The translations under genes were made by a program, and so were the position numbers. A DNA stretch of 26,993 nucleotides from a virus (lineage: Duplodnaviria > Caudoviricetes): IMG/VR virus record IMGVR_UViG_3300030372_003023, positions 1 to 26,993 of that record; one strand, written 5' to 3'. The notes under the pieces were generated by a model that did no database searches, was not told the origin of the DNA, and saw only the letters and a list, made by a program, of their open reading frames with translations. This document shows, piece after piece, positions 7,734 to 26,993 of the stretch; position 1 is the stretch's first letter, and the number at the start of each line of letters is the position of its first letter.

Positions 7734-8896
7734 TGGCTGAAGAAGAAAAAAGTAGGTTACTTTTAGAAGAACAATATAATGTACAAAATACTAATACTGG
7801 TAATAGAAATACTTTTGTAAACCGTTTAGGCATGGGAAATTTATTATTAGGTTCTATACTAGCTGGCTCTATGATGCCACAACCAGCTGGTAAAAACGCA
7901 GTATCTAATGCTACTGATTTGTTTTTGAAAACACTTACAGCAACTAATCCAAAAACACTTATGCCGCCTGGAGAAACTACTTTAAAACAAGAAAGAGCAA
8001 AATCTTCTGTAAAACGTGAAGATAAAATATACGAAGCGGCAAGAAACGCACAAAATGTTTTATTGGATACACAAAAATTAGATACTATTGTAAATACTAT
8101 AAACACTAAAGGTTTCCAAACAGGTGGCAACCTACAACTTGTAAATAGCTTGATAGGTATAGGAAGAAAATATGGATTACAGTTTGACGGAGATACAGAA
8201 AATGTTAATGATTTAATTAACTATGGTAATATTGTAACTAAAGAATTAGCTATGGGTGGATTACAAGCATTTCCTGGCGCTATATCAGATAGAGAATTAA
8301 TTTATAGTGAAAGTAGTCAATTAGGTTTAGGTTTAGAAGATGTTACGTATAAACTAAAAAGTACTATAGATAAAAGTAAATCACAGTTTTTAATTGACAG
8401 CGCTGACGCACAAAGTATTTTCCAAAGTGGTGGCGCTAATATTAACGACAGGGTAACAATACAAAAAAGTAATATTACAGGTAAAGCAGAAAGTTTAACT
8501 AACGATGAATTTAGAAAAGATTACTTATTAGGTTTAGGTTATGAATTTGTAAATAAAGATGGTTTAACAGTACCTAAAGAAAAAATAACTTTGCAAAATA
8601 TAAATAAGTTACAAATAAGTCTTTTAAATAATTTAGACAGACAAGCTTTAGATTTACGTTTAAGACTTAATAGTGACAAAAACTATACAAATTCTAATTC
8701 TTGGATTACTAAAGAAATTAATGGTGAAACATTTTATATTTATAAAGGAGCTTTAAATGAAAAAAATGAGTTAGATAATAAATATTTTAAATTTTTAGAC
8801 GAAGGTAAAACACAAAAAAATCCTAATTACAGCCCTTACATAACTGGACAAGTAATAATAGAAGAAGATAAATATAAAAAATTAACAGGTAGATAA
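7733..8896 (+). CDS. Putative DNA ejection/transfer protein
   Basis: 387 aa; SD AGGAGG; PGAISDRE motif seen in ejection proteins; synteny. Confidence 0.55.
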   Translation: MAEEEKSRLLLEEQYNVQNTNTGNRNTFVNRLGMGNLLLGSILAGSMMPQPAGKNAVSNATDLFLKTLTATNPKTLMPPGETTLKQERAKSSVKREDKIYEAARNAQNVLLDTQKLDTIVNTINTKGFQTGGNLQLVNSLIGIGRKYGLQFDGDTENVNDLINYGNIVTKELAMGGLQAFPGAISDRELIYSESSQLGLGLEDVTYKLKSTIDKSKSQFLIDSADAQSIFQSGGANINDRVTIQKSNITGKAESLTNDEFRKDYLLGLGYEFVNKDGLTVPKEKITLQNINKLQISLLNNLDRQALDLRLRLNSDKNYTNSNSWITKEINGETFYIYKGALNEKNELDNKYFKFLDEGKTQKNPNYSPYITGQVIIEEDKYKKLTGR

Positions 8897-8897
8897 T

Positions 8898-11477
8898 ATG
8901 TCAACAAGAGAAGAAGATTTAGTTCAAGATATACGGAACAAAGCAACCTTAGATGTACCAAAATCAGATAAAATAGGTTTTTTTGATGAATTAAGAGGTG
9001 ATGCTGTAGAATTTAAAGATTTACCTAGTAGTTATTTTTCAAGTGAGATAGTTAATGATTTTGCAACAGCAGACCAAAACAGAGCAATATCTTTGGGTTA
9101 TGGTGTTAGTTTAGACAACAACGCAATAGCTGATATTATAAAAGAACAATTTCCTAACGTAGTATACACAAACGATAAATATAATAATTTAATTGCAACT
9201 ATACCTAGATATGAAAATAACGTACCTGTAGAGCCATATAAATTTTACGTAAACCCTAGAGGCGCACAAGGGGTAGATTTTGCACAATTAGCAGCTCAAA
9301 CTTTACAATTTATACCATTTATGAGAGTTGGTGCGGGAACACTAAAAGGCGCAAATATGGCTCAACAATTCAAAGAATTAGCTACAAAAGGTTTAAAATT
9401 ATTTGGCGCTGGAGCTGGATTAGATGTAACACAACAAAGTGTAGCAGGTGCTTTAGGTAGCGAACAAGGTACGGTAAACTACGGGCCAATAAAATTTGAC
9501 CCAATACAAAGTGCTATAGTAGGTGGTATAACCCCGTTTGGCGCAATGCTTGGTTATTATGGTAGTAAAGCAACAGGTGCTGGTGTAGAAAGATTTTTAA
9601 AATACAAAAGAGATTATTTTCCTAAATATTTTGATAGAAAAACAAATGTAGTAAATGAAGACGGGGCGGTAGAATTATCAAAAATAGGTATAAAATTTTC
9701 ACAAGATAAAGATAGTTCGTTTTTTACCGACCCCAAAGGCGTAATTTATAAACCAGACGATAAAATTTTAACAGATACACTTATAGCAATAGAAAAAGGT
9801 ATACCAGCAGAAAATGCTTGGTTACACGCAAGAGCAGAAAGTTTAGGTATTCCTCTTATGGGCTTTCAAGTAAGAGGCAAAACAAAAACATCAACAATAA
9901 TGAGTCAAAGTGAAGATGAAACTTTATTTAATGATTTTTTAAACGGTAGATACGGTGGGGAAGCACAAGAAATAGCTATGCAAGTTAAAGGTCTACAAGA
10001 AGAAAATGCTTTGAGAGCTTTTGCAAAAACAATAGGTATTGAAGATGAAGACGCTATAAAAGGTTTAATGAACACTTTAATAGACCCTAAAGCAGGCGGA
10101 CATACTACGTTAGTAGATGCTTTAGGCGCATTTACAGCTACTAATTTAAAAAACCAAAAAGAAGGTTTAGAATCACAAATAGCGCAACAATATACTAAGT
10201 TTCAAGACGACAGGTTACAAGTTTTACCTGCTGAATGGGAAAAACTAGGTTATAATATGGATAATCACATAAAAGCTATAACTGGTTTGCCAAGTAATTC
10301 AGCTAATTTGAAAAAAACATCTCCTTATCTACTACGCGCACACGAAATGAATCAAACATTCATTAAGGATATGCATGGTAAAGGTGGAAATTTTGTTAAA
10401 GGTTTTGATTTGAAAGCCATTATGAATCATAGGACTAAAATGCAACAACTTTATAATAAAGTTCCAAAAGACAAACCACAACAAGCTGCTGAGGTTCTAT
10501 CATATTTTAACAAAGTTGATGAAAACATAGATGGTATGTTTAATGCAATGCTTACAAAACCAACATCTAATTTTACAAAACAAACATATAAAGATTTAAT
10601 GGACGCACGCGCAATGTTTAGAGAATTACACGTCAAGTTTGGTAAAAATCAAACGTATAACATGGGTATTTTAGAAAAAATAGACGACCAATTTATTTCT
10701 AGAATTGTAAATCAAAAAGATATTAGTCCAATGGAAATAGGTTTTTGGTTTCAAAACAATAAAAACATAGGTTTAGATGACAGAGTAATTGGAACAATTA
10801 ATAAAATACGAGATATTTTTAAAGATGACCCTAATACTTTATTAAACTTTAATAATTTGTTAAAAAAATCATTATTATCTGAAATGGCTTTTACATCAGT
10901 TGTCAAAGAAGGTTCTGAAGTATCAGCTGGCGCGGTTATAGACTCTAGATTACTATCAAATGCTACTCAAAAATGGTTTAAAACCTCTAGTGGTAAAAAA
11001 ATATGGAACAATGTTTTTGGAGAAGAATCAGCGTCTACAAAACAAAAACTAGAAACTTTAATAGAAGTTTTAGACTCTACAAAAAATAAAACAAAAATAC
11101 CAGTACGTACCGCTGATACTGGCTCTACATTAGGTAGTACTTTGTTTACGCAGGGTGGAGCTGTAAACGATGTACTTCAATTAATGTCTTACAAACACGC
11201 TGGTTTAGAGGGACTGTACGCTTATAAAGTTTTAACTAGAGATATTTCTAAAGGTGTTAATCCTGATTTTGACATAATAGAGTTATCCAACAATAATTTA
11301 CCTCTTTTAGATTTATTTAAATCAACTGGTTTTTCTACTATACAAAAAGGCAGAGAATATTTGTCGGGTGAAGGTGAGGGACAATATGACTCTAGTATAA
11401 TGGAGCAAGAAACTGGTATGGGTGTAAATATTAATAAATTAGAAAAAGCTTTAGATGATTTACAAAAAGTGAGGTAA
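8898..11477 (+). CDS. Large DNA ejection/transfer protein
   Basis: 859 aa helical protein with Gly/Ala-rich membrane-like segments; last and largest of the ejection cluster. Confidence 0.55.
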   Translation: MSTREEDLVQDIRNKATLDVPKSDKIGFFDELRGDAVEFKDLPSSYFSSEIVNDFATADQNRAISLGYGVSLDNNAIADIIKEQFPNVVYTNDKYNNLIATIPRYENNVPVEPYKFYVNPRGAQGVDFAQLAAQTLQFIPFMRVGAGTLKGANMAQQFKELATKGLKLFGAGAGLDVTQQSVAGALGSEQGTVNYGPIKFDPIQSAIVGGITPFGAMLGYYGSKATGAGVERFLKYKRDYFPKYFDRKTNVVNEDGAVELSKIGIKFSQDKDSSFFTDPKGVIYKPDDKILTDTLIAIEKGIPAENAWLHARAESLGIPLMGFQVRGKTKTSTIMSQSEDETLFNDFLNGRYGGEAQEIAMQVKGLQEENALRAFAKTIGIEDEDAIKGLMNTLIDPKAGGHTTLVDALGAFTATNLKNQKEGLESQIAQQYTKFQDDRLQVLPAEWEKLGYNMDNHIKAITGLPSNSANLKKTSPYLLRAHEMNQTFIKDMHGKGGNFVKGFDLKAIMNHRTKMQQLYNKVPKDKPQQAAEVLSYFNKVDENIDGMFNAMLTKPTSNFTKQTYKDLMDARAMFRELHVKFGKNQTYNMGILEKIDDQFISRIVNQKDISPMEIGFWFQNNKNIGLDDRVIGTINKIRDIFKDDPNTLLNFNNLLKKSLLSEMAFTSVVKEGSEVSAGAVIDSRLLSNATQKWFKTSSGKKIWNNVFGEESASTKQKLETLIEVLDSTKNKTKIPVRTADTGSTLGSTLFTQGGAVNDVLQLMSYKHAGLEGLYAYKVLTRDISKGVNPDFDIIELSNNNLPLLDLFKSTGFSTIQKGREYLSGEGEGQYDSSIMEQETGMGVNINKLEKALDDLQKVR

Positions 11478-19042: not shown

Positions 19043-19353
19043 TGAGTAAAAAAAATAAAAGGCAAATAAAAAAAGAAATGGCTAAGATGTGCGAATTTGG
19101 ATGTTTCATTTGTAAAAAATATTACGGTGTAACAAATACACACGACTTAAACATACATCATTTACGTACTGGGGTTGGTATGGGTCAAAGAAACCACGAC
19201 CAATTTATTTGTCTATGTGTTAAACATCATCTTTGGGGATTAGAAGCTATACATGGTATAGGAAAAAAAGCATGGGAAGAAAAGTTTGAAAGCGAAATAT
19301 CGTTGTTAGAGTGGTACAAAGAACAAGAAACGGAGACAAAGATAAATGGATAA
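19042..19353 (+). CDS. Ref/DUF968-like HNH nuclease
   Basis: GCFIC...IHHLRTG.GMGQR...ICLCVKHH...AIH.IGKKAWE. Confidence 0.7.
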   Translation: MSKKNKRQIKKEMAKMCEFGCFICKKYYGVTNTHDLNIHHLRTGVGMGQRNHDQFICLCVKHHLWGLEAIHGIGKKAWEEKFESEISLLEWYKEQETETKING

Positions 19354-20224
19354 AAAATTATCAAAACCCGTATTAACACCCGTAGAAGAATATAACGGTA
19401 TTTATTTTAAGCGAGACGATTTATACGCACCTTACGGAGAAAATTTTATTACGGGTGGTAAAATAAGACAATGTAGACATTTAGTTGAAAGTAATTTAGA
19501 ACAAATACACAAAGAATTTGACAGTACTATTACAACTGCCGCATCAATACATTCACCCCAAAACCCTATTGTTGCCCGTGTGGCAAAAGAATTTAATTTA
19601 AAATGTCTTATTGGTATAGGTGGTACAACTGTCGAAAAAGCAAAACAAAGAAAAGGTATAGAATTATGTTTAGACTTAGGTTCGGAAGTAAAAATTTTAT
19701 CAGAACATTACGCATTTAACAACGTACTATACTCTAGACTTGGTAAATTATGTGATGAAAAACCAATGTTCAAAATATTGTTCGGTTATTCTATGAAAAC
19801 ACACAAAGACTCAATAGTAGACACCATAGCAGACCAAGTACAAAACGTTGATTGTGATAGTTTATACGTTATTGTAGGTAGTGGGGTAACATTAAACGGT
19901 ATTTTAGAGGGTGTTAGGAAATATAATAAAAAATTTCAGATAATAGGTTTACAACCATTCGGACACGATAGAAGAAAAACAATGCACCCATCGCCAGAGC
20001 TTTGGGAACTAACAGAAAATGGTGGAATATATACAAAAATACGCTCGCACAGGTACAAATATATAACAGGTAAATACCCATACAACGCTCTGTTAAAAAA
20101 GAATGTTGGGTTTGATTTAGACATGATTTACGAGTCAAAAGGTTTTGAAATGATGGAAAAAATCATAAAACCTAACGAAAAATCTTGCTATTGGGTAGTT
20201 GGTAACAGTAATATCATAAGATGA
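19346..20224 (+). CDS. PLP-dependent fold-type II enzyme (ACC deaminase/D-cysteine desulfhydrase-like)
   Basis: LTPVEE...FKRDDL...GGKIRQ (PLP lysine), SPQ, VGSGVTLNG, LDMIYESK. Confidence 0.75.
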   Translation: MDKKLSKPVLTPVEEYNGIYFKRDDLYAPYGENFITGGKIRQCRHLVESNLEQIHKEFDSTITTAASIHSPQNPIVARVAKEFNLKCLIGIGGTTVEKAKQRKGIELCLDLGSEVKILSEHYAFNNVLYSRLGKLCDEKPMFKILFGYSMKTHKDSIVDTIADQVQNVDCDSLYVIVGSGVTLNGILEGVRKYNKKFQIIGLQPFGHDRRKTMHPSPELWELTENGGIYTKIRSHRYKYITGKYPYNALLKKNVGFDLDMIYESKGFEMMEKIIKPNEKSCYWVVGNSNIIR

Positions 20225-21654
20225 GAGACCATAAAACACAAAATTTGTTTGTAGAAACACAGAAACCAGTAATAAAAGTGTCTGAAAACATACAATATTT
20301 AACAAAATATGCTAACGAACAAGGTATACCTATACTGTGGCACGAGGATTTTGCTACATTAACCAACGAAATAGGTTCTGAGAAGTTTAGAGAAGATTTA
20401 GCGCAATATATATATGAAGTTAGACCACCATATCCGACACAAGACATTACTGAAAAAGATGTTGCAAAAAGTTTTTTTGACTTAAAATCAGCTTATACCT
20501 ATAAACACACAATACCAAACGAGGATATAACGAAAAACGTTAATGAAAAACACGATGATTATAAATATCCGTATAAAGATTACGGGTTAGGTATTATTGA
20601 CACATCTGGCACACATAACGCAGTTAGCAATTATTACCACCAATTACTAAGGTTAAACTGTCCAAGTGCACGTGGAAAAGCAGTCGCAGATACATGGACA
20701 GATGGCACTGCAAGAGAAATATGGGCTTGTTTGAAAGCTTGTTGGGGTGGCATAAACAACATGAAAGAGGTTGAAATAAATGGTGTTAAACAGAAAGTTG
20801 GTGGCGCTTTAACCAAAGATGTATATAGGTCTACTTTTAGATTAGGTAGTTTTATTGCTACGCAATTTAAACCTTTGGTAGCAAAAACAATTTATACTAT
20901 GACACAAGCAGAAAAAGTATTAGATACAAGTTGTGGTTGGGGGGATAGGTTAGCAGGTTTTTACACCAGTAACGCTAAAGAGTACGTTGGTTCCGACCCA
21001 AACCCTAACACTTTTGAAAAATACAAAGAACAAGTGAAAGATTACGAAGAAATGTTGGGTAGTAAAGCAGATATACACGAAGAAACTGATTTTTTCTACT
21101 GTAATGGTGTAAAAAAAGTAAAAATTTACAGGAGTGGCGCTGAAAACTTGCCGTGGGAAGATATAGATAACGTTGATTGTTCTTTTACAAGCCCACCATA
21201 TTTTTCTACTGAACGTTATAACGAGGGTGGTTTACACGAACAAGACCAATCATGGAAAAAATTTGTTACATTTGAAGATTGGTTGAATAAATTTTTTATA
21301 CCAGTAAGTGTTAATTGTTTTAATAGTTTATCAGATAAAGGACACTTATGGATAAATATAATAGACCCAACAATCGGCAGTAAAAGACATCGTTGTTGCG
21401 ATGTTATTGTAGATGAATTATTAGATTCATTTAAAGGAATTGTAGGTATGACTATGGCGCAAAGACCGTTAAAACGTACAGCAATACAACGTGAAAACAA
21501 CAAAAAAGGTCTAAACAAAGATTTAGCTTTAATGACTGATGATAATAAATTATTAGCACATTACATAGAAAACATTTGGTGTTTTGGTAAAAATGACTTA
21601 GATTATTTTCATGAGTATAAAACTGAAAGGGATAGACAAAGTACGTTATTTTGA
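20221..21654 (+). CDS. DNA amino-methyltransferase (N4-C/N6-A type)
   Basis: Motif I VLDTSCGWGDRL and motif IV FTSPPYF. Confidence 0.75.
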   Translation: MRDHKTQNLFVETQKPVIKVSENIQYLTKYANEQGIPILWHEDFATLTNEIGSEKFREDLAQYIYEVRPPYPTQDITEKDVAKSFFDLKSAYTYKHTIPNEDITKNVNEKHDDYKYPYKDYGLGIIDTSGTHNAVSNYYHQLLRLNCPSARGKAVADTWTDGTAREIWACLKACWGGINNMKEVEINGVKQKVGGALTKDVYRSTFRLGSFIATQFKPLVAKTIYTMTQAEKVLDTSCGWGDRLAGFYTSNAKEYVGSDPNPNTFEKYKEQVKDYEEMLGSKADIHEETDFFYCNGVKKVKIYRSGAENLPWEDIDNVDCSFTSPPYFSTERYNEGGLHEQDQSWKKFVTFEDWLNKFFIPVSVNCFNSLSDKGHLWINIIDPTIGSKRHRCCDVIVDELLDSFKGIVGMTMAQRPLKRTAIQRENNKKGLNKDLALMTDDNKLLAHYIENIWCFGKNDLDYFHEYKTERDRQSTLF

Positions 21655-22186: not shown

Positions 22187-22219
22187 AAAAAAAGACCCCA
22201 CGCCTTTAAGCGTGAGGTC
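22187..22219 (-). terminator. Rho-independent terminator of the minus-strand ribozyme operon
   Basis: Minus strand GACCTCACGC-TTAAAG-GCGTGGGGTC (10 bp, one G.U) followed by T7. Confidence 0.85.
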
Positions 22220-22277
22220 GGAGGAAACAGCTCAGTAAAGAGCCTATCCGTGTGGGTTTTACATATAACCCATTCTA

Positions 22278-22676
22278 CTAGTCTGTATTATTAATTACAA
22301 GTCCATGTCTACACATCAAAAACCTAAAATATTGTTCTTTAAACAGAACCAACAACCCGTTAAGTTGTGTTAAGTTTAAGTTTTTCATAGCAGGCATGGT
22401 GTCTACGTTTGATAGACCACTCAAAAAATTATACATTCTCGTTTGAGTTACATCGTACATATCATAATCTTTATCTTCTTCTAGCCATTTTACACGGTTT
22501 GCAAGTGTCATTATACTTTTGCATTCGTATAATATTATTGCAATCTGGTGTTTGTCTAAAATAAGATTGCTATCTGACAAAACATATTTTAAAACACTTA
22601 TTAGGTAATCTGTTTTATCACGTAAAGAATTACGGTATTTTAGCAACTCTTTTTGTTGTTTTTGTATATCACTCAT
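22278..22676 (-). CDS. Hypothetical protein
   Basis: 132 aa ORF, SD AGGAGGT. Confidence 0.75.
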   Translation of the reverse strand: MSDIQKQQKELLKYRNSLRDKTDYLISVLKYVLSDSNLILDKHQIAIILYECKSIMTLANRVKWLEEDKDYDMYDVTQTRMYNFLSGLSNVDTMPAMKNLNLTQLNGLLVLFKEQYFRFLMCRHGLVINNTD

Positions 22677-22690
22677 GTTTACCTCCTATT

Positions 22691-22759
22691 GTAATAGACC
22701 CCTATCGGAACATCTTACGAAGATAGGGGTTTCGTGTACTAAACACTCATCAGTATTAC
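22691..22759 (-). ncRNA. Type I hammerhead ribozyme HHR1
   Basis: GUAAUA CUGAUGA GUGU-UUAGU-ACAC GAA ACCCCUAUC-15nt-GAUAGGGGU C^UAUUAC; GUC triplet, cut 22697/22696. Confidence 0.95.
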
Positions 22760-23100
22760 TGTTTTGATTGGGATATGCGTTCTTTAATAGAAATTTCATG
22801 GTTTATTTCTTCTATCAAATCATCTATAAGTTCGCTAACTGTATTTAACATACCACCATTACGCAACATATTTCTAGTCATCATACGTTTATGTAATATT
22901 ATATTATCATCTTTCCTAGATAACTCATACGCAAGCAACTTAAGTCCGACTAACGTGAAAAACCTTGAATCAACTTCGCTATCATCGTGTCCGAGTTTAG
23001 GCGATAACTTTGCAGTATCAACTAAGAACTCAGCAAGTATTTCATCTCGGGATTGTCGTTTAGTTACTTTAGCATCTACTCTATGTAGTGTATTTTTCAT
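22756..23100 (-). CDS. Hypothetical protein
   Basis: 114 aa, SD AGGAGG; TAA stop lies in stem I of HHR1. Confidence 0.75.
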   Translation of the reverse strand: MKNTLHRVDAKVTKRQSRDEILAEFLVDTAKLSPKLGHDDSEVDSRFFTLVGLKLLAYELSRKDDNIILHKRMMTRNMLRNGGMLNTVSELIDDLIEEINHEISIKERISQSKQ

Positions 23101-23121
23101 ATTTTCCTCCTTTGGAGTGTT

Positions 23122-23210
23122 GTATAAGACCTAGTGGATTTTTACTAGATAGAATCCTCTATCAGCTGTTTCGCACTAGGTTTCGTCTATTCAAGACTCA
23201 TCAGTTATAC
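23122..23210 (-). ncRNA. Type I hammerhead ribozyme HHR2 (extended stem III)
   Basis: GUAUAA CUGAUGA GUCU-UGAAU-AGAC GAA ACCUAGUG-insert-CACUAGGU C^UUAUAC; cut 23128/23127. Confidence 0.93.
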
Positions 23211-23231
23211 TACTAATTTAGTTGATTTACA

Positions 23232-23309
23232 GTAACCGACATTCCACTTCTCGTTACATTCTATTATAAAATGTGTGTATAACTACACAGAAAGTAAAAT
23301 GTCAGTTAC
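23232..23309 (-). ncRNA. Candidate structured RNA (long stem with three-way junction)
   Basis: GUAACUGACAUUUUACUUUC pairs with GAGAAGUGGAAUGUCGGUUAC (~19-20 bp with G.U pairs valid only on the minus strand), enclosing two hairpins. Confidence 0.6.
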
Positions 23310-23316
23310 ATGAAAA

Positions 23317-23589
23317 CTACCATTTTAGTTCTTCATGGGGTTGCGCTACAATGTAACTTACACACCTAACAATATCACCAGTTTGTTTTTCAATTTGTTT
23401 ACTTAACTTATCAACTTTTTCTGTATACCAGATAAAGTCGCCTTCCATACATTTTAAGCAATGTATTTTAGCGTCAGAATAATTGTCAAAAGTTTTAACT
23501 AGAAAATATCTGTATTTGTGTACATCAACACCGTCACGCATACTAATATAATCTCTTCGCATTACATCATAGTATTTTTTTTGTTCCAT
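23317..23589 (-). CDS. Hypothetical protein (90 aa)
   Basis: Start reassigned to MEQKKYY at 23589 (SD AGGAGG); the ORF-track extension runs through HHR3. Confidence 0.75.
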   Translation of the reverse strand: MEQKKYYDVMRRDYISMRDGVDVHKYRYFLVKTFDNYSDAKIHCLKCMEGDFIWYTEKVDKLSKQIEKQTGDIVRCVSYIVAQPHEELKW

Positions 23590-23605
23590 ATTTCCTCCTT
23601 TGTTT

Positions 23606-23663
23606 ATGTAAGACCCCCGAAATAAATCGAGGGTTTCGACCAATCAGGTCTCATCAGTTACAT
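23606..23663 (-). ncRNA. Type I hammerhead ribozyme HHR3
   Basis: AUGUAA CUGAUGA GACC-UGAUU-GGUC GAA ACCCUCGA-UUUAUU-UCGGGGGU C^UUACAU; cut 23612/23611. Confidence 0.95.
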
Positions 23664-25093
23664 TTTTGTTCTAATAAATATAATTTTGCTCCTATTTTAC
23701 ATAAAGCGTCATTATATGAACTAGATAAGTGGTCGCCTGTGTACCAATGTCCAAACTCATGAATAATTAAAGCCATTATATCTTCTTTATTAACTTCCCA
23801 GTTAAACCATTTCTGACTTAAATGAGCAGTATTGAAGTATAAATCACACTTTCCGTATCTAGCCACAGCGTTATCTTTGTGGTTTTTATAGAAAGTTACA
23901 TTTAACTCATCATTGAACAGTTTGATATGAAAACTTTTAGCTTTATTAGCTATACGTTCCATATCTTCTGTTACTTTGGTTACTTGGTTGCCATCTATAT
24001 GCATCATAATATTACACGTTTGATATTGTGATAAACTAGATGATGACGGTACTAGATTTGGGTTTTCTTCTCTGTGATTTCTGACATTTTGCCATACTTT
24101 CCCCGAGTAAGAACCAGCGTAAACAACTTCCCTACCGTCTGCCATAGCTTTTTTGCTAGATTCAGGGTCAGCAGGACTAAATGTTACAGCGTCTTCCCCG
24201 TGTCGTACTTCAAACACATGACTAGTTGCTTTTTCGTTAGCTTTTTCTAACGCTGTATTTACCCAAGATGATTTAATATCATCTTCGGACATTTCTTCAT
24301 ACATAGCATCTAATACCCCTGTTTGTAGTTTACGTAGATATATAGGTTTAACATTATCTCTATCCTTGTTTAAAGGAATTTTCTGTAAAACATTTACAGA
24401 AAAAGACATGTCTGTTTCGACTATTGGTATTCCCATTTCACATATATAAGATTTAGGGGTTTTATAAACCTCTACATCTGTAATTCTATGTGTGTCAAAC
24501 AAATTACCTTTTTTATCTACGCCAACAGTAGGGAGTTCAAATCTAATTACTTTCAATGGTTTCTTCTTTTCTATTACCTTTTCATTTATTGTTAAAACAA
24601 TATGATTAGGTACTAGAATATTAGAACATTCAGCAACTATTGAGTTGACTTCATCTTTAGTTAGTACATTTTTAGATATAAAACCCTCAAATACACTACC
24701 TTTGTCGGTAGAATCTTCAGATTTATTTCTAGTGCCATCTTTATTAAAGATTATTGTACCCGTAGTTGATGTAATCTTTGCAGTTTCAAACATTGATAAA
24801 ACAAGTTTTTCACCTAGATTAAATCTACCACGTTGTTCAACGTTACCTTTTTTATAGGATGGCGCAAATAATGTATAACTATCCGTTAATGACTTAAACC
24901 CGTTAGGGCTATCATCTTTAACGACTATAAGATGTTTATTAGCAAACGTTTTAATAGTTACATTACATCTAGTTACATTTTCATCAAACGCATTAGATAT
25001 TAGTTCATATAAGATAAAGTGTTTAGCTCTTCCAGATTCTATCTGTTTAAGACCTTCTTTATCTACAACGAACCACTCGTTACTTTTTGACAT
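23654..25093 (-). CDS. GHKL (HATPase_c) ATPase with C-terminal HEXXH motif
   Basis: ELISNAFD (N box), VKDDSPNGF (G1), RGRFNLGEK (G2), KGSVF; C-terminal LIIHEFGHW; SD AGGAGG. Confidence 0.8.
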   Translation of the reverse strand: MSKSNEWFVVDKEGLKQIESGRAKHFILYELISNAFDENVTRCNVTIKTFANKHLIVVKDDSPNGFKSLTDSYTLFAPSYKKGNVEQRGRFNLGEKLVLSMFETAKITSTTGTIIFNKDGTRNKSEDSTDKGSVFEGFISKNVLTKDEVNSIVAECSNILVPNHIVLTINEKVIEKKKPLKVIRFELPTVGVDKKGNLFDTHRITDVEVYKTPKSYICEMGIPIVETDMSFSVNVLQKIPLNKDRDNVKPIYLRKLQTGVLDAMYEEMSEDDIKSSWVNTALEKANEKATSHVFEVRHGEDAVTFSPADPESSKKAMADGREVVYAGSYSGKVWQNVRNHREENPNLVPSSSSLSQYQTCNIMMHIDGNQVTKVTEDMERIANKAKSFHIKLFNDELNVTFYKNHKDNAVARYGKCDLYFNTAHLSQKWFNWEVNKEDIMALIIHEFGHWYTGDHLSSSYNDALCKIGAKLYLLEQKCN

Positions 25094-25108
25094 ATTTCCT
25101 CCTTTTTT

Positions 25109-25165
25109 GTAATAGACCCAATCTTATCGATTGGGTTTCGGGTATCCAACCCTCATCAGTATTAC
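25109..25165 (-). ncRNA. Type I hammerhead ribozyme HHR4
   Basis: GUAAUA CUGAUGA GGGU-UGGAU-ACCC GAA ACCCAAUC-GAUAA-GAUUGGGU C^UAUUAC; cut 25115/25114. Confidence 0.95.
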
Positions 25166-25175
25166 TTTTTCTGTC

Positions 25176-25367
25176 TTAAATGTGATTGAAAGGCATAATA
25201 ACAACTGTGTACGATACTCTCTGACTTTCTTGTCTGTTAGAAAAATCAGCGCAAAGACTATTTGCAAGGTCAACACTATAATAGAGTTTCTCACCAACTA
25301 TATTATAGGTTGATGTTTGCTCGTTGTTTTTATATCTTCTTACGATTGCATAAGTTTGTTTTTGCAT
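25176..25367 (-). CDS. Hypothetical protein
   Basis: 63 aa, SD AGGAGG. Confidence 0.7.
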   Translation of the reverse strand: MQKQTYAIVRRYKNNEQTSTYNIVGEKLYYSVDLANSLCADFSNRQESQRVSYTVVIMPFNHI

Positions 25368-25381
25368 TTTTTCCTCCTATT

Positions 25382-25456
25382 GTAAAAGACGCCAACACTC
25401 GCCCACTATCTATGGGCTAGCTGGCGTTTCGGATAATCAATCCTCATCAGTTTTAC
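25382..25456 (-). ncRNA. Type I hammerhead ribozyme HHR5
   Basis: GUAAAA CUGAUGA GGAU-UGAUU-AUCC GAA ACGCCA-(GCCCA/UGGGC hairpin)-UGGCGU C^UUUUAC; cut 25388/25387. Confidence 0.94.
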
Positions 25457-25465
25457 TTTGTTTTT

Positions 25466-25630
25466 TTACCTCAAGAATATAATTAATAATATTGGTAGCA
25501 TTAATATTACCAATAACCCGTTCATTAATGCTTTTTCCCCGTCAGTCACATTTGACGCACATACAATATATGTATATATCAAACAAGCTAAACAAAAGAG
25601 AAAAACAAAAAAATATAAGTCAATCATCAT
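25466..25630 (-). CDS. 54-aa two-TM membrane protein, missing from ORF track
   Basis: MMIDLYFFVFLFCLACLIYTYIVCASNVTDGEKALMNGLLVILMLPILLIIFLR; SD AGGAGG; sits exactly between HHR6 and HHR5. Confidence 0.75.
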   Translation of the reverse strand: MMIDLYFFVFLFCLACLIYTYIVCASNVTDGEKALMNGLLVILMLPILLIIFLR

Positions 25631-25643
25631 ATTTCCTCCTTTT

Positions 25644-25704
25644 GTAATATATACCCAATTTAAAAAACTGGGTATTTCGAGTATTTAACTCTCATCAGTA
25701 TTAC
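25644..25704 (-). ncRNA. Type I hammerhead ribozyme HHR6
   Basis: GUAAUA CUGAUGA GAGU-UAAAU-ACUC GAA AUACCCAG-9nt-UUGGGUAU A^UAUUAC; AUA triplet, cut 25650/25649. Confidence 0.93.
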
Positions 25705-25713
25705 TTTTTATTA

Positions 25714-25869
25714 TTAACCTATACCCATTTCTTTCATTCTTGCTGGGATTACTTTTTCAGAATTACAATCCGAACAACAATCACCATTGGCTAAAGGCTC
25801 TGCATTGTTTCTGTCGTATTGGTTTTCAAACTTTTTACCACACAAACAACAATTATCTTCTTTTTCCAT
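25714..25869 (-). CDS. 51-aa Cys-rich zinc-finger-like protein, missing from ORF track
   Basis: MEKEDNCCLCGKKFENQYDRNNAEPLANGDCCSDCNSEKVIPARMKEMGIG; CxxC...CxxC; SD AGGAGG. Confidence 0.8.
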   Translation of the reverse strand: MEKEDNCCLCGKKFENQYDRNNAEPLANGDCCSDCNSEKVIPARMKEMGIG

Positions 25870-25885
25870 TTTTTCCTCCTTTGTT

Positions 25886-25937
25886 GTAATATACGCCCCT
25901 AAGGGCGTTTCGGGTATTAAACCCTCGTCAGTATTAC
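25886..25937 (-). ncRNA. Type I hammerhead ribozyme HHR7
   Basis: GUAAUA CUGACGA GGGU-UUAAU-ACCC GAA ACGCCC-UUAG-GGGCGU A^UAUUAC; GUA triplet, cut 25892/25891. Confidence 0.95.
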
Positions 25938-26185
25938 TTTTCTCCGTTTATACCATTTAACTCAATAGTCATTCTGAAATTATATGTACCTAACATAGAA
26001 TTAGATATTTTGAATTCACCTAGATTATCAATTAATTCTAATAAATTACCTACTGTAAAATCATTAAAATATTCTACTTCTGCAAATTCATTTCCTAATA
26101 AAACATTATCATCGTGTATATTTGATTCTAAAATTTTATCTTTAACTCTATAACTACAACCATTAAGTTCGTGTATTTTTTGCAT
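25934..26185 (-). CDS. Hypothetical protein
   Basis: 83 aa, SD AGGAGG; TAA stop in stem I of HHR7. Confidence 0.75.
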   Translation of the reverse strand: MQKIHELNGCSYRVKDKILESNIHDDNVLLGNEFAEVEYFNDFTVGNLLELIDNLGEFKISNSMLGTYNFRMTIELNGINGEK

Positions 26186-26199
26186 TTTTTCCTCCTTTT

Positions 26200-26256
26200 G
26201 TTATATACACCCAAACGAGTCGGGTGTTTCGGGTACTTAACCCTCGTCAGTATAAC
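26200..26256 (-). ncRNA. Type I hammerhead ribozyme HHR8
   Basis: GUUAUA CUGACGA GGGU-UAAGU-ACCC GAA ACACCC-9nt-GGGUGU A^UAUAAC; cut 26206/26205. Confidence 0.94.
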
Positions 26257-26323
26257 TTTTGAACGGTATTAACATTTCGCCTGTTTCAACGTCTATTACA
26301 CCGTGTTCAGTTTTTTCATACAT
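26237..26323 (-). CDS. 28-aa micropeptide, missing from ORF track
   Basis: MYEKTEHGVIDVETGEMLIPFKSYTDEG; SD GGAGG 7 nt upstream; between HHR9 and HHR8, reads into the HHR8 core. Confidence 0.65.
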   Translation of the reverse strand: MYEKTEHGVIDVETGEMLIPFKSYTDEG

Positions 26324-26340
26324 AATGTTTCCTCCATTTT

Positions 26341-26397
26341 GTAATATACCCTACCTCATAAATAGGGTTTCGGATATTAAATCCTCGTCAGTATTAC
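26341..26397 (-). ncRNA. Type I hammerhead ribozyme HHR9
   Basis: GUAAUA CUGACGA GGAU-UUAAU-AUCC GAA ACCCUA-UUUAUGAGG-UAGGGU A^UAUUAC; cut 26347/26346. Confidence 0.95.
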
Positions 26398-26747
26398 TAT
26401 GCAACATTATTCATGGCATTTTCTTCGTCATAATGCGCATGGAATATTTTATTTTGGTCTTGTACAACTTCTAATCTTTGATTTTTTGGGTTGTAATATG
26501 CAATTTTAACAACTACATCATCAACTAAAAATTCAAATTTATAAAGTTCAGCATCCCACACTTTATTGCTGTCGTAAAAGGTTTTTTTAATTACCGTTTT
26601 TTTAATTTCCGTTTTAACAAAGTCAAAAGAATTTACTCTACTTGTACCTATTTTTACATCGGTAGTAGTGTATTCTCTTGTTCCGTAAGATTTAGAACTG
26701 TTGTAATTAGGCGCATCTACAACGCACCATATTGGATATTGTCTCAT
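26397..26747 (-). CDS. Hypothetical protein
   Basis: 116 aa, SD AGGAGG; TAG stop overlaps first base of HHR9. Confidence 0.75.
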   Translation of the reverse strand: MRQYPIWCVVDAPNYNSSKSYGTREYTTTDVKIGTSRVNSFDFVKTEIKKTVIKKTFYDSNKVWDAELYKFEFLVDDVVVKIAYYNPKNQRLEVVQDQNKIFHAHYDEENAMNNVA

Positions 26748-26764
26748 TTTTTCCTCCTTTTGTT

Positions 26765-26824
26765 GTAATAGATACCGTTACGTTAATAACGGTATTTCGG
26801 TTATTAAAACCTCGTCAGTATTAC
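26765..26824 (-). ncRNA. Type I hammerhead ribozyme HHR10
   Basis: GUAAUA CUGACGA GGUU-UUAAU-AACC GAA AUACCGUUA-UUAACG-UAACGGUAU C^UAUUAC; AUC triplet, cut 26771/26770. Confidence 0.95.
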
Positions 26825-26991
26825 TTGGTATACAACTTATTTTCTATTTCGAACGTTTCCAATCTACTAATAATAAGTTTTTCAAAGTCACCTTCTGCAA
26901 AATTAATCACAGTCATATAACAGAAAACATCTAAATCGTCAATTAACTCAACGCCTGCTTTCGTCAACATAATAAAAAATTCATTCATTAA
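26821..26991 (-). CDS. 3' part of hypothetical protein (open at window edge)
   Basis: ...LMNEFFIMLTKAGVELIDDLDVFCYMTVINFAEGDFEKLIISRLETFEIENKLYTK*; TAA in stem I of HHR10. Confidence 0.65.
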   Translation of the reverse strand, partial: LMNEFFIMLTKAGVELIDDLDVFCYMTVINFAEGDFEKLIISRLETFEIENKLYTK

Positions 26992-26993
26992 AG

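Follow-up and report, generated by a model that had tools for sequence, protein, structure and literature searches.

In regard to the closest described systems, clusters of hammerhead ribozymes that flank single genes of variable identity were reported from prophages and phages in 2011 and were proposed to process long transcripts (PMC3088659; papers are cited here by accession). Tandem prophage hammerheads cleave in vitro, one set of them also in E. coli, and a stem II beginning with U-U was already described there (PMC3088659). By 2019, the purpose of most self-cleaving ribozymes of bacteria and phages was still considered open, with polycistron processing suggested but not defined (PMC6765202). 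The stretch analysed here, the viral record IMGVR_UViG_3300030372_003023 (Caudoviricetes), is one contig of 26,993 nucleotides (nt), hereafter the window, and all position numbers are those of the whole stretch. From 22278 to its end it carries eleven genes on the minus strand, mostly small, and ten of them follow a predicted type I hammerhead. This array is a compact variant of the phage layout known since 2011. In our reading, to which we give a probability of roughly 0.6, a single long phage transcript, probably an early one, is likely divided by the ten ribozymes into self-contained single-gene messages.

As in the 2011 clusters, several ribozymes flank variable single genes in a phage; nine contigs hold 53 cassettes with 28 families of open reading frames (ORFs) in varying order. 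The sets tested in 2011 consisted of three ribozymes, whereas the window has 10, the related contig L109 has 12 (11 type I and 1 type III) and contig L014 has 16 (14 type I and 2 type III, for 16 genes). A fixed stem I of 6 bp, a minimal leader adapted to the start signal of the host, linkage to the upstream gene and anti-Shine-Dalgarno boxes are not described in the available parts of the 2011 paper, and a literature search, with most subscription papers beyond its reach, found no publication on the hairpin-free type I arrangement or on such boxes. The type I subfamily itself may not be new and is possibly already in the 2011 dataset; Figure S6 of that paper shows active marine-metagenome variants and, in addition, a strand whose first letters are this stem I sequence, which are not assignable (PMC3088659).

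Other systems share single traits with the array. PeSL cassettes of T4-type phages are likewise repeated intergenic elements among small orphan genes, with the repeat at points of gain, loss and exchange, as in the window array, and their excision leaves one chimeric element (PMC2839356). Each PeSL repeat, however, is a sigma-70 promoter with a terminator stem-loop, whereas the window repeat is a catalytic RNA with a ribosome-binding site (RBS) and no promoter signal. Type I ribozymes of eukaryotic RNA viruses resemble those of the window in lying in untranslated regions before ORFs, with cleavage tied to translation initiation, but initiation there is cap-independent and uses no Shine-Dalgarno (SD) sequence. 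In phage T7, RNase III processes the early transcript into single-gene messages able to retain 3′ hairpins, like the proposed array products; this processing needs a host nuclease and leaves 5′-phosphate ends, unlike the array ribozymes. R1.1, an RNase III site in the T7 early transcript, is discussed in PMC6993053.

The type I core was found complete by the parser in all ten elements (C3-U4-G5-A6-N7-G8-A9, G12-A13-A14, A15.1-U16.1 and H17), with GUC as the cleavage triplet in five, GUA in three, and AUC and AUA in one each. In every element stem I has 6 bp, stem II has 4 bp closed by a loop of 5 nt, and stem III is long. A strict hammerhead pattern had no match in 100 dinucleotide shuffles, and a second pattern search gave seven matches in the window against none in 100 shuffles. 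In an alignment of 31 hand-picked copies (eight of the ten window copies and 23 from other loci), 98.9% of the cells pair, double changes occur at 12 of 15 pairs and none of 500 shuffles was as good; slid alignments, as controls, gave 28–47% pairing. Because the stems vary by compensatory change, the RNA structure is maintained, and by this comparative evidence the ten array elements are real RNA structures. A parser that takes no account of stem I, and that loses copies in which one of the four leading stem III pairs is G-U (the copy at 23657 is an example), recovered a stem I of precisely six Watson-Crick pairs in 85 of the 87 candidates, against a mean of 26 and a maximum of 38 under permutation. 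The stem I helix is flanked by A on its two sides in 80 and 79 of 85 copies, and A follows it at leader positions +7 (79/85) and +8 (76/85); since stem I is thus capped on both sides, the first two A's of the leader "spacer" may belong to the tertiary fold of the ribozyme and not to the RBS. Loop II begins with U in 79 of 79 copies, and its last base is U in 77 of them, a regularity partly imposed by the search pattern. Cleavage, with a 5′-OH on one product and a 2′,3′-cyclic phosphate on the other, is predicted from the consensus.

With the Rfam families RF03152 (RAGATH-1) and RF00163 (Hammerhead_1) the elements share the type I topology, the core, the long stem III and an A-rich stretch 5′ of stem I, while stem II has one pair in the RAGATH-1 model and four in the window ribozymes. 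Membership in either family was rejected, as the best scores lie beneath the gathering thresholds: 37.4 bits in the window and 42.0 in L014 against 56.3 for RF03152, and 28.9 and 31.5 against 34 for RF00163. Two variants were seen in L014, a hammerhead at 10700 with a CCGAUGA core (U4C) and one at 8341-8478 whose stem III contains a large insert with a second core-like sequence.

The preliminary description of this locus had drawn attention to the short leaders, and here it is borne out. The distances from the cut to the ATG are 20, 27, 22, 21, 20, 19, 22, 20, 23 and 23 nt (from low to high coordinate), as noted in all ten cases. Each leader is the 6-nt 3′ strand of stem I, an A-rich spacer and GGAGG, with the ATG 4–7 nt further on; the SD is AGGAGG in nine leaders and UGGAGG in the remaining one, at 26335. 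That these SDs are more uniform than elsewhere in the window was also confirmed: ten of the twelve GGAGG on the minus strand are array leaders, and only 2 of 26 other window ORFs have a GGAGG within 25 nt upstream. Calculated with an assumed 16S tail, the SD pairing energy is -11.2 +/- 0.8 kcal/mol in the array (n=10) versus -6.7 +/- 2.5 at 22 other starts picked by hand from 26 (Mann-Whitney p=9e-5).

The short distance extends beyond the window. Leaders in 43 non-redundant copies of the clade measure 19–28 nt, some of these having been found with patterns that contain the SD. Outside the clade, at loci found with leader-blind patterns ending at GAAA(Y), the cut lies 16–30 nt before an ATG in 36 of 47 copies, versus 10.7% of random positions; 16 of these copies have an SD (out of 18 that do) and 20 have none (out of 29), and the remaining 11 are at 51–84 nt. 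The SD-less leaders contain 2% G and have A at -3 (16/20) and -6 (18/20). They occur in Flavobacterium and Bacteroidia contigs, and fit with the initiation of translation in Bacteroidota, which proceeds without SD. In a cultured Flavobacterium phage, a probable copy, read by hand, lies ~28 nt 5′ of an annotated start. Since most SD-bearing and most SD-less leaders measure 16–30 nt, what is conserved is a predicted cut that borders the ribosome landing site, irrespective of the host signal; and because the short distance recurs in unrelated phages, even SD-less ones, a uniform landing site looks selected. The conserved distance supports the core of the idea put forward in the preliminary description. 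In several SD-less phages (L011, L013, L017, L018, L019, L022, L030 and L033) a longer conserved leader follows the ribozyme; it begins with a small hairpin, is 73–80 nt long where measured and is probably another RNA element.

In regard to the transcript, a promoter for each gene had been named in the preliminary description as a finding that would count against it, and a promoter scan gave no sign of such promoters. Promoter-like sites are at chance level (28 versus 29.7), the best match per gene is 6–9 of 12, the same as in random windows, and per-gene promoters were accordingly rejected. A stricter scan found a single terminator; it stands at the array end and recurs in each of the four contigs of the clade extending that far (the window, L001, L044 and L131). 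A looser scan adds a weak site of five pairs inside the 479-aa gene. The array start lies outside the window. Contig L109, near-identical to the window (99.76% over 4.1 kb), extends past it and has there a conserved AT-rich promoter candidate, a conserved non-coding leader of ~550 nt with an anti-SD box, and a type III hammerhead before the first gene. This type III ribozyme has a U10.1-U11.1 mismatch, and phage PaP3 (L176) has a type III ribozyme of this variant, which, like those of the clade, precedes the gene that opens its run. Three metatranscriptome runs (two samples, one study) contain contigs of parts of the 479-aa gene; among the matches listed, no RNA joint connects the cut sites and most small cassettes are uncovered, and such contigs cannot show ends, strand or level, so that the coverage pattern is uninformative on cleavage or expression.

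Furthermore, the cassettes are exchanged. L109 has two cassettes missing from the window, and the first ribozyme of the window consists of the halves of two L109 ribozymes joined across 12 identical nt, for which an assembly error is the alternative; cassette variation as a whole rests on assembled contigs. The 116-aa ORF has homologues in five other contigs, with four different genes downstream. Upstream stop codons fall within -23..+13 nt of the next core in 32 of 34 clade cases. Homologous genes whose neighbours differ were compared in pairs: for the ribozymes that follow them, stem III reaches 80% identity or more in 7 of 13 pairs, and for the ribozymes that precede them it does so in 2 of 18, against a background of 3.7% of 670, the pairs coming from seven families each and not being independent. 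Because the following stem III is shared more often than the preceding one, the ribozyme tends to behave as the 3′ end of the preceding gene and to travel with it. Two window ORFs (26237-26323, and the one ending at 23654-23657) run into or through the next catalytic core, with stops at +13 and +3, as do 5 of 34 ORFs in the clade; translating ribosomes would therefore cross the core. The features of the array are collected in Table 1.

Table 1. Features of the ribozyme array and its flanks, in order of transcription
Feature	Position	Strand	Remarks
3′ part of first array gene (93 aa in L109)	26821..26993	-	from comparison with L109
Type I hammerhead 1	26765..26824, cut 26771/26770	-	AUC; chimera of two ribozymes of near-identical contig L109
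Leader 1, 23 nt	26748..26770	-	AGGAGG
ORF, 116 aa	26397..26747	-	no family at cut-off
Type I hammerhead 2	26341..26397, cut 26347/26346	-	GUA
Leader 2, 23 nt	26324..26346	-	UGGAGG
ORF, 28 aa	26237..26323	-	crosses next ribozyme core, stop in stem II; 23-aa homologue in L014
Type I hammerhead 3	26200..26256, cut 26206/26205	-	GUA
Leader 3, 20 nt	26186..26205	-	
ORF, 83 aa	25934..26185	-	stop within stem I of following ribozyme
Type I hammerhead 4	25886..25937, cut 25892/25891	-	GUA
Leader 4, 22 nt	25870..25891	-	
ORF, 51 aa	25714..25869	-	Cys-rich
Type I hammerhead 5	25644..25704, cut 25650/25649	-	AUA
Leader 5, 19 nt	25631..25649	-	
ORF, 54 aa	25466..25630	-	hydrophobic
Type I hammerhead 6	25382..25456, cut 25388/25387	-	GUC; long stem III
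Leader 6, 20 nt	25368..25387	-	
ORF, 63 aa	25176..25367	-	
Type I hammerhead 7	25109..25165, cut 25115/25114	-	GUC
Leader 7, 21 nt	25094..25114	-	
ORF, 479 aa	23654..25093	-	GHKL (HATPase_c_3)-like phage protein; UGA stop in core of following ribozyme
Type I hammerhead 8	23606..23663, cut 23612/23611	-	GUC; top Rfam scores, all below gathering
Leader 8, 22 nt	23590..23611	-	
ORF, 90 aa	23317..23589	-	
Long branched hairpin	23228..23317	-	z -5.9
Type I hammerhead 9	23122..23210, cut 23128/23127	-	GUC; 51-nt stem III region
Leader 9, 27 nt	23101..23127	-	
ORF, 114 aa	22756..23100	-	stop within stem I of following ribozyme
Type I hammerhead 10	22691..22759, cut 22697/22696	-	GUC
Leader 10, 20 nt	22677..22696	-	
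ORF, 132 aa	22278..22676	-	final array gene
Anti-SD-like box UUUCCUCC	22220..22227	-	immediately 5′ of terminator
Intrinsic-terminator-like hairpin and U tract	22187..22219	-	array end

According to the reading that we favour, transcription would start once, 5′ of the first gene, and end at the terminator listed last in Table 1. Each ribozyme would fold just past a stop codon and cut, and the weak 6-bp stem I would let the pieces separate. Each message would then have a hairpin-free leader of ~20 nt with a 5′-OH, and a 3′ end made of the hairpins of the next ribozyme with a 2′,3′-cyclic phosphate; the downstream piece would carry little beyond the host initiation signal, while the upstream piece would gain a terminator-like 3′ end without termination. 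Leader, ORF and ribozyme together would form a self-contained unit, so that recombination at the repeats could add, remove and rearrange accessory genes with no need for promoters, terminators or translational coupling.

Several points weigh against this account. Cleavage is predicted here from the DNA letters, and the RNA runs consist of contigs, which are unable to show transcript ends. The contact by which loop II would meet stem I in the tertiary fold, a requirement for fast hammerheads, is putative, Rfam detects four of the ten elements, all under the gathering score, and as promoter there is no more than a candidate, AT-rich and conserved, that lies beyond the window. The host is not assignable, as the nearest cultured matches are 50–60% identical and the Sak protein is uninformative. 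In the arrays of L044 and L131 the last gene has no ribozyme, and cutting is therefore not required for every gene. Finally, the modularity may be a by-product and not the selected purpose. Of the alternatives considered below, the insulator and the anti-SD regulon are not mutually exclusive with the processing of one transcript, nor with one another.

The preliminary description had gone further and regarded the elements as natural insulators, comparable to RiboJ, whose 5′-OH ends make the messages long-lived and highly translated. As the main purpose of the array this is possible, if doubtful. What stands is a short 5′ end that would not depend on the upstream gene, as the predicted cut precedes the RBS in all ten cases and the distance is conserved in other phages; RiboJ likewise places a hammerhead ahead of an RBS and yields a uniform 5′ end whatever the upstream sequence. 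The layout, on the other hand, is not that of RiboJ, which leaves a hairpin-containing piece before the RBS, a hairpin that its authors suggest explains the gain in stability (PMC6206723). The ten window ribozymes leave no hairpin downstream: in folding, the upstream piece keeps both hairpins (-12.7 to -26.8 kcal/mol) with a 1-nt tail, and the downstream piece receives the 6-nt strand, held by about -2 kcal/mol. The copies that do resemble RiboJ are of type III: one stands ahead of the first gene in each of L109, L014 and L044, and another ahead of the GHKL gene in L014, with leaders of 60–69 nt in L109 and L014. Uniform leaders with strong SDs favour the insulator, as does one gene family in which the SD energy is -11.6 in L014, where a ribozyme precedes the gene, and -7.2/-7.9 in L044 and L131, where none does, and RiboJ itself raises protein 2–10 fold and mRNA ~2 fold (PMC6206723). 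High translation as a result of cutting was not upheld, as it would follow from the strong SD, which in folding is equally open before the cut: opening of SD-AUG costs a mean of 3.2 kcal/mol before and 3.4 after, and opening of -20..+13 goes from 5.0 to 4.4, better by more than 1 in four leaders and worse by more than 1 in two. Folding thus lends no support to the idea that cutting generally switches on the ten genes of the window array.

As for stability, the statement that 5′-OH RNAs are poor substrates for RNase E and J applies to the 5′-sensor route of RNase E. Some 5′-OH RNAs are cut poorly by this enzyme, and E. coli seemingly does not phosphorylate a 5′-OH made by a hammerhead (PMC4191395, citing unpublished data); the relatives of the capsid and terminase loosely suggest a proteobacterial host. 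The statement does not extend to direct entry, by which RNase E also cleaves (PMC4191395), nor to RNase J1, which degrades the 5′-OH product of the glmS ribozyme (PMC11780869). Because a 5′-OH escapes the RNase E sensor but neither of these two, the sign of any stability effect depends on the host, and any stabilisation is more likely to come from the 3′ hairpins and from ribosomes on the strong SD than from the 5′-OH alone. The tendency of the ribozyme to be inherited with the upstream and not the downstream gene also speaks against an insulator.

It is also conceivable, as a tentative and rather unlikely model, that the array has a common off-switch, in which a 5′ box would hide the first SD until the type III ribozyme cuts; the leader RNA set free in this way, together with the final message, would then base-pair with all leaders and damp the array. 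Both boxes are conserved. The 5′ box, UUCCUCCUCCUU, is invariant 60–62 nt before the type III cut in L109, L014 and L044, is also found in L002, and neighbours a GUAA hairpin with compensatory change; its predicted pairing with the first SD is 0.88–0.95, and the opening cost falls from 7.3–11.0 to 0.5–1.1 kcal/mol after the cut. The 3′ box is kept just before the terminator in all four contigs (L001/L014, L044, L131 and the window), though the flanking hairpins differ, and a 7-mer of its type occurs once in 27 kb of the array strand of the window, at the terminator (chance ~0.001 per 20-nt slot). A role for it as an RBS of the opposite strand was rejected, as no start codon lies 4–14 nt past the GGAGG in any of the four. 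In local folds both boxes are predicted to be largely single-stranded, and their trans duplexes with the ten leaders are predicted at -10 to -17 kcal/mol. However, the boxes were spotted after the fact, in 3–4 haplotypes of a single clade, and since all eight anti-SD:SD pairs are invariant, covariation is absent. None was found outside the clade in the contigs searched, and none lies within 170 nt upstream of 12 other distinct type III pattern matches (~10 real ribozymes). Moreover, folding programs pair any CCUCC with GGAGG, and two short helices could still join the pieces after the cut. In its fullest form, which we put forward with equal reserve, the array might be a ribozyme-built regulon in which a hammerhead ON-switch would free the first SD from an anti-SD strand, the type I ribozymes would release 10–16 interchangeable messages with a common SD box, and the two end fragments, in each of which CCUCC would lie open among hairpins, would act as phage small RNAs that silence all of these messages at once.

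Alternatively, the uniform leader could be mainly a by-product of duplication and recombination of one PeSL-like ribozyme-leader element, which seems unlikely. The shuffled order and the chimeric ribozyme with its 12-nt junction agree with this, and the inheritance of the ribozyme with the upstream gene implies many exchanges in or near the leader. The phage also encodes the single-strand annealing protein Sak, and the same excision logic was reported for PeSLs (PMC2839356). Opposed to it are the unrelated phages whose SD-less, 2%-G leaders retain the cut-to-start distance and the A at -3 and -6, and the compensatory changes by which the stems are maintained.

Quite unlikely is a decay timer resembling glmS, in which the cut would expose single-stranded 5′-OH ends to RNase J and early messages would vanish fast. 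RNase J is present in many alphaproteobacteria; among cultured phages, those of SAR11 give the closest capsid and terminase matches, and the leaders have no protecting hairpin. The precedent is the glmS 5′-OH product, degraded by RNase J1 (PMC11780869; PMC6765202). Strong SDs 10–17 nt from the cut and stable 3′ hairpins would nevertheless oppose decay, and the same ribozymes occur in Bacteroidota contexts. Ribosomes, furthermore, may block RNase J. Ligation of the cut units into circular messages, for which 5′-OH and cyclic-phosphate ends are suitable and stem I is similar among copies, is highly improbable and was rejected, as a perfect head-to-tail stem I is possible in only 2 of 9 window units, whereas pairing within the own ribozyme is perfect in 10 of 10, and no RNA ligase was found among 36 scanned ORFs. 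Circles were likewise not detected in the 2011 study (PMC3088659).

As for the carrier, profile searches of the window proteins identified tail and virion proteins, the Sak recombinase, a methylase and a small terminase. The virion and terminase proteins resemble those of PaP3/LUZ24-like and SAR11 phages at 39–60% identity, with the nearest cultured capsid and terminase matches, at 50–60%, in SAR11 phages; the window represents an uncultivated marine phage with a probably proteobacterial host. The runs that contain the array region are mostly marine metagenomes, and all four runs with at least half of its words are marine. Nine of the ten genes that follow a ribozyme have no Pfam match at the cut-off and no PHROG match; the tenth encodes the 479-aa protein, with an N-terminal GHKL-like domain, a C-terminal HExxH motif and 524 homologues, almost none of them named. 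Its gene is preceded by a type I ribozyme in the window and by a type III ribozyme in L014. On the plus strand, at 19346-21654, a gene for an enzyme resembling pyridoxal-phosphate-dependent ones lies beside a methyltransferase-like gene, a possible DNA modification pair. The branched hairpin that follows the 90-aa gene family is also present in L014 (11738-11818, z -5.4) and absent after the homologues in L044 and L131; a target site of RNase III and a mobile RNA module are two possible explanations.

The ~550-nt leader (9140-9697 in L109, 7260-7792 in L014, 7200-7722 in L044; upstream of the window end) has blocks conserved between L109 and L014 and more diverged in L044, and no Rfam match. 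Within it lie the GUAA hairpin, which covaries, and a long hairpin whose formation competes with that of stem III in the type III hammerhead; the leader is possibly a new phage non-coding RNA. A type III ribozyme with U10.1-U11.1, followed by an SD and an ORF, is found in several unrelated viral contigs (L181-L198), of which L187 and L198 each combine one type III with four type I copies. A metagenome pattern search gave 121 loci, only nine of which hold a parsed type I hammerhead. Unannotated hammerheads of this kind are present in cultured phages, at L173 708, L174 2268, and L175 8231 and 10002; the cultured carriers are OM43 phage MEP301, SAR11 phage HTVC201P and a Flavobacterium elemo phage, with 49 elemo-group records matching. 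In Baldr, HTVC106P and Venkman, cultured relatives by capsid or terminase, the parser found no type I hammerhead.

In the reading that we favour, the structured part goes to the upstream message and the ribozyme also serves as a joint for gene shuffling, and the array makes the purpose of such ribozymes testable with a part of 60 nt. It would also offer a hairpin-free means to split synthetic operons. The anti-SD boxes, if functional, would be a natural ribozyme-gated translation switch. If the regulon were true as well, the uniform leader would be both a landing site for ribosomes and the address of a master switch, and new cassettes acquired by the phage would fall under the same control.

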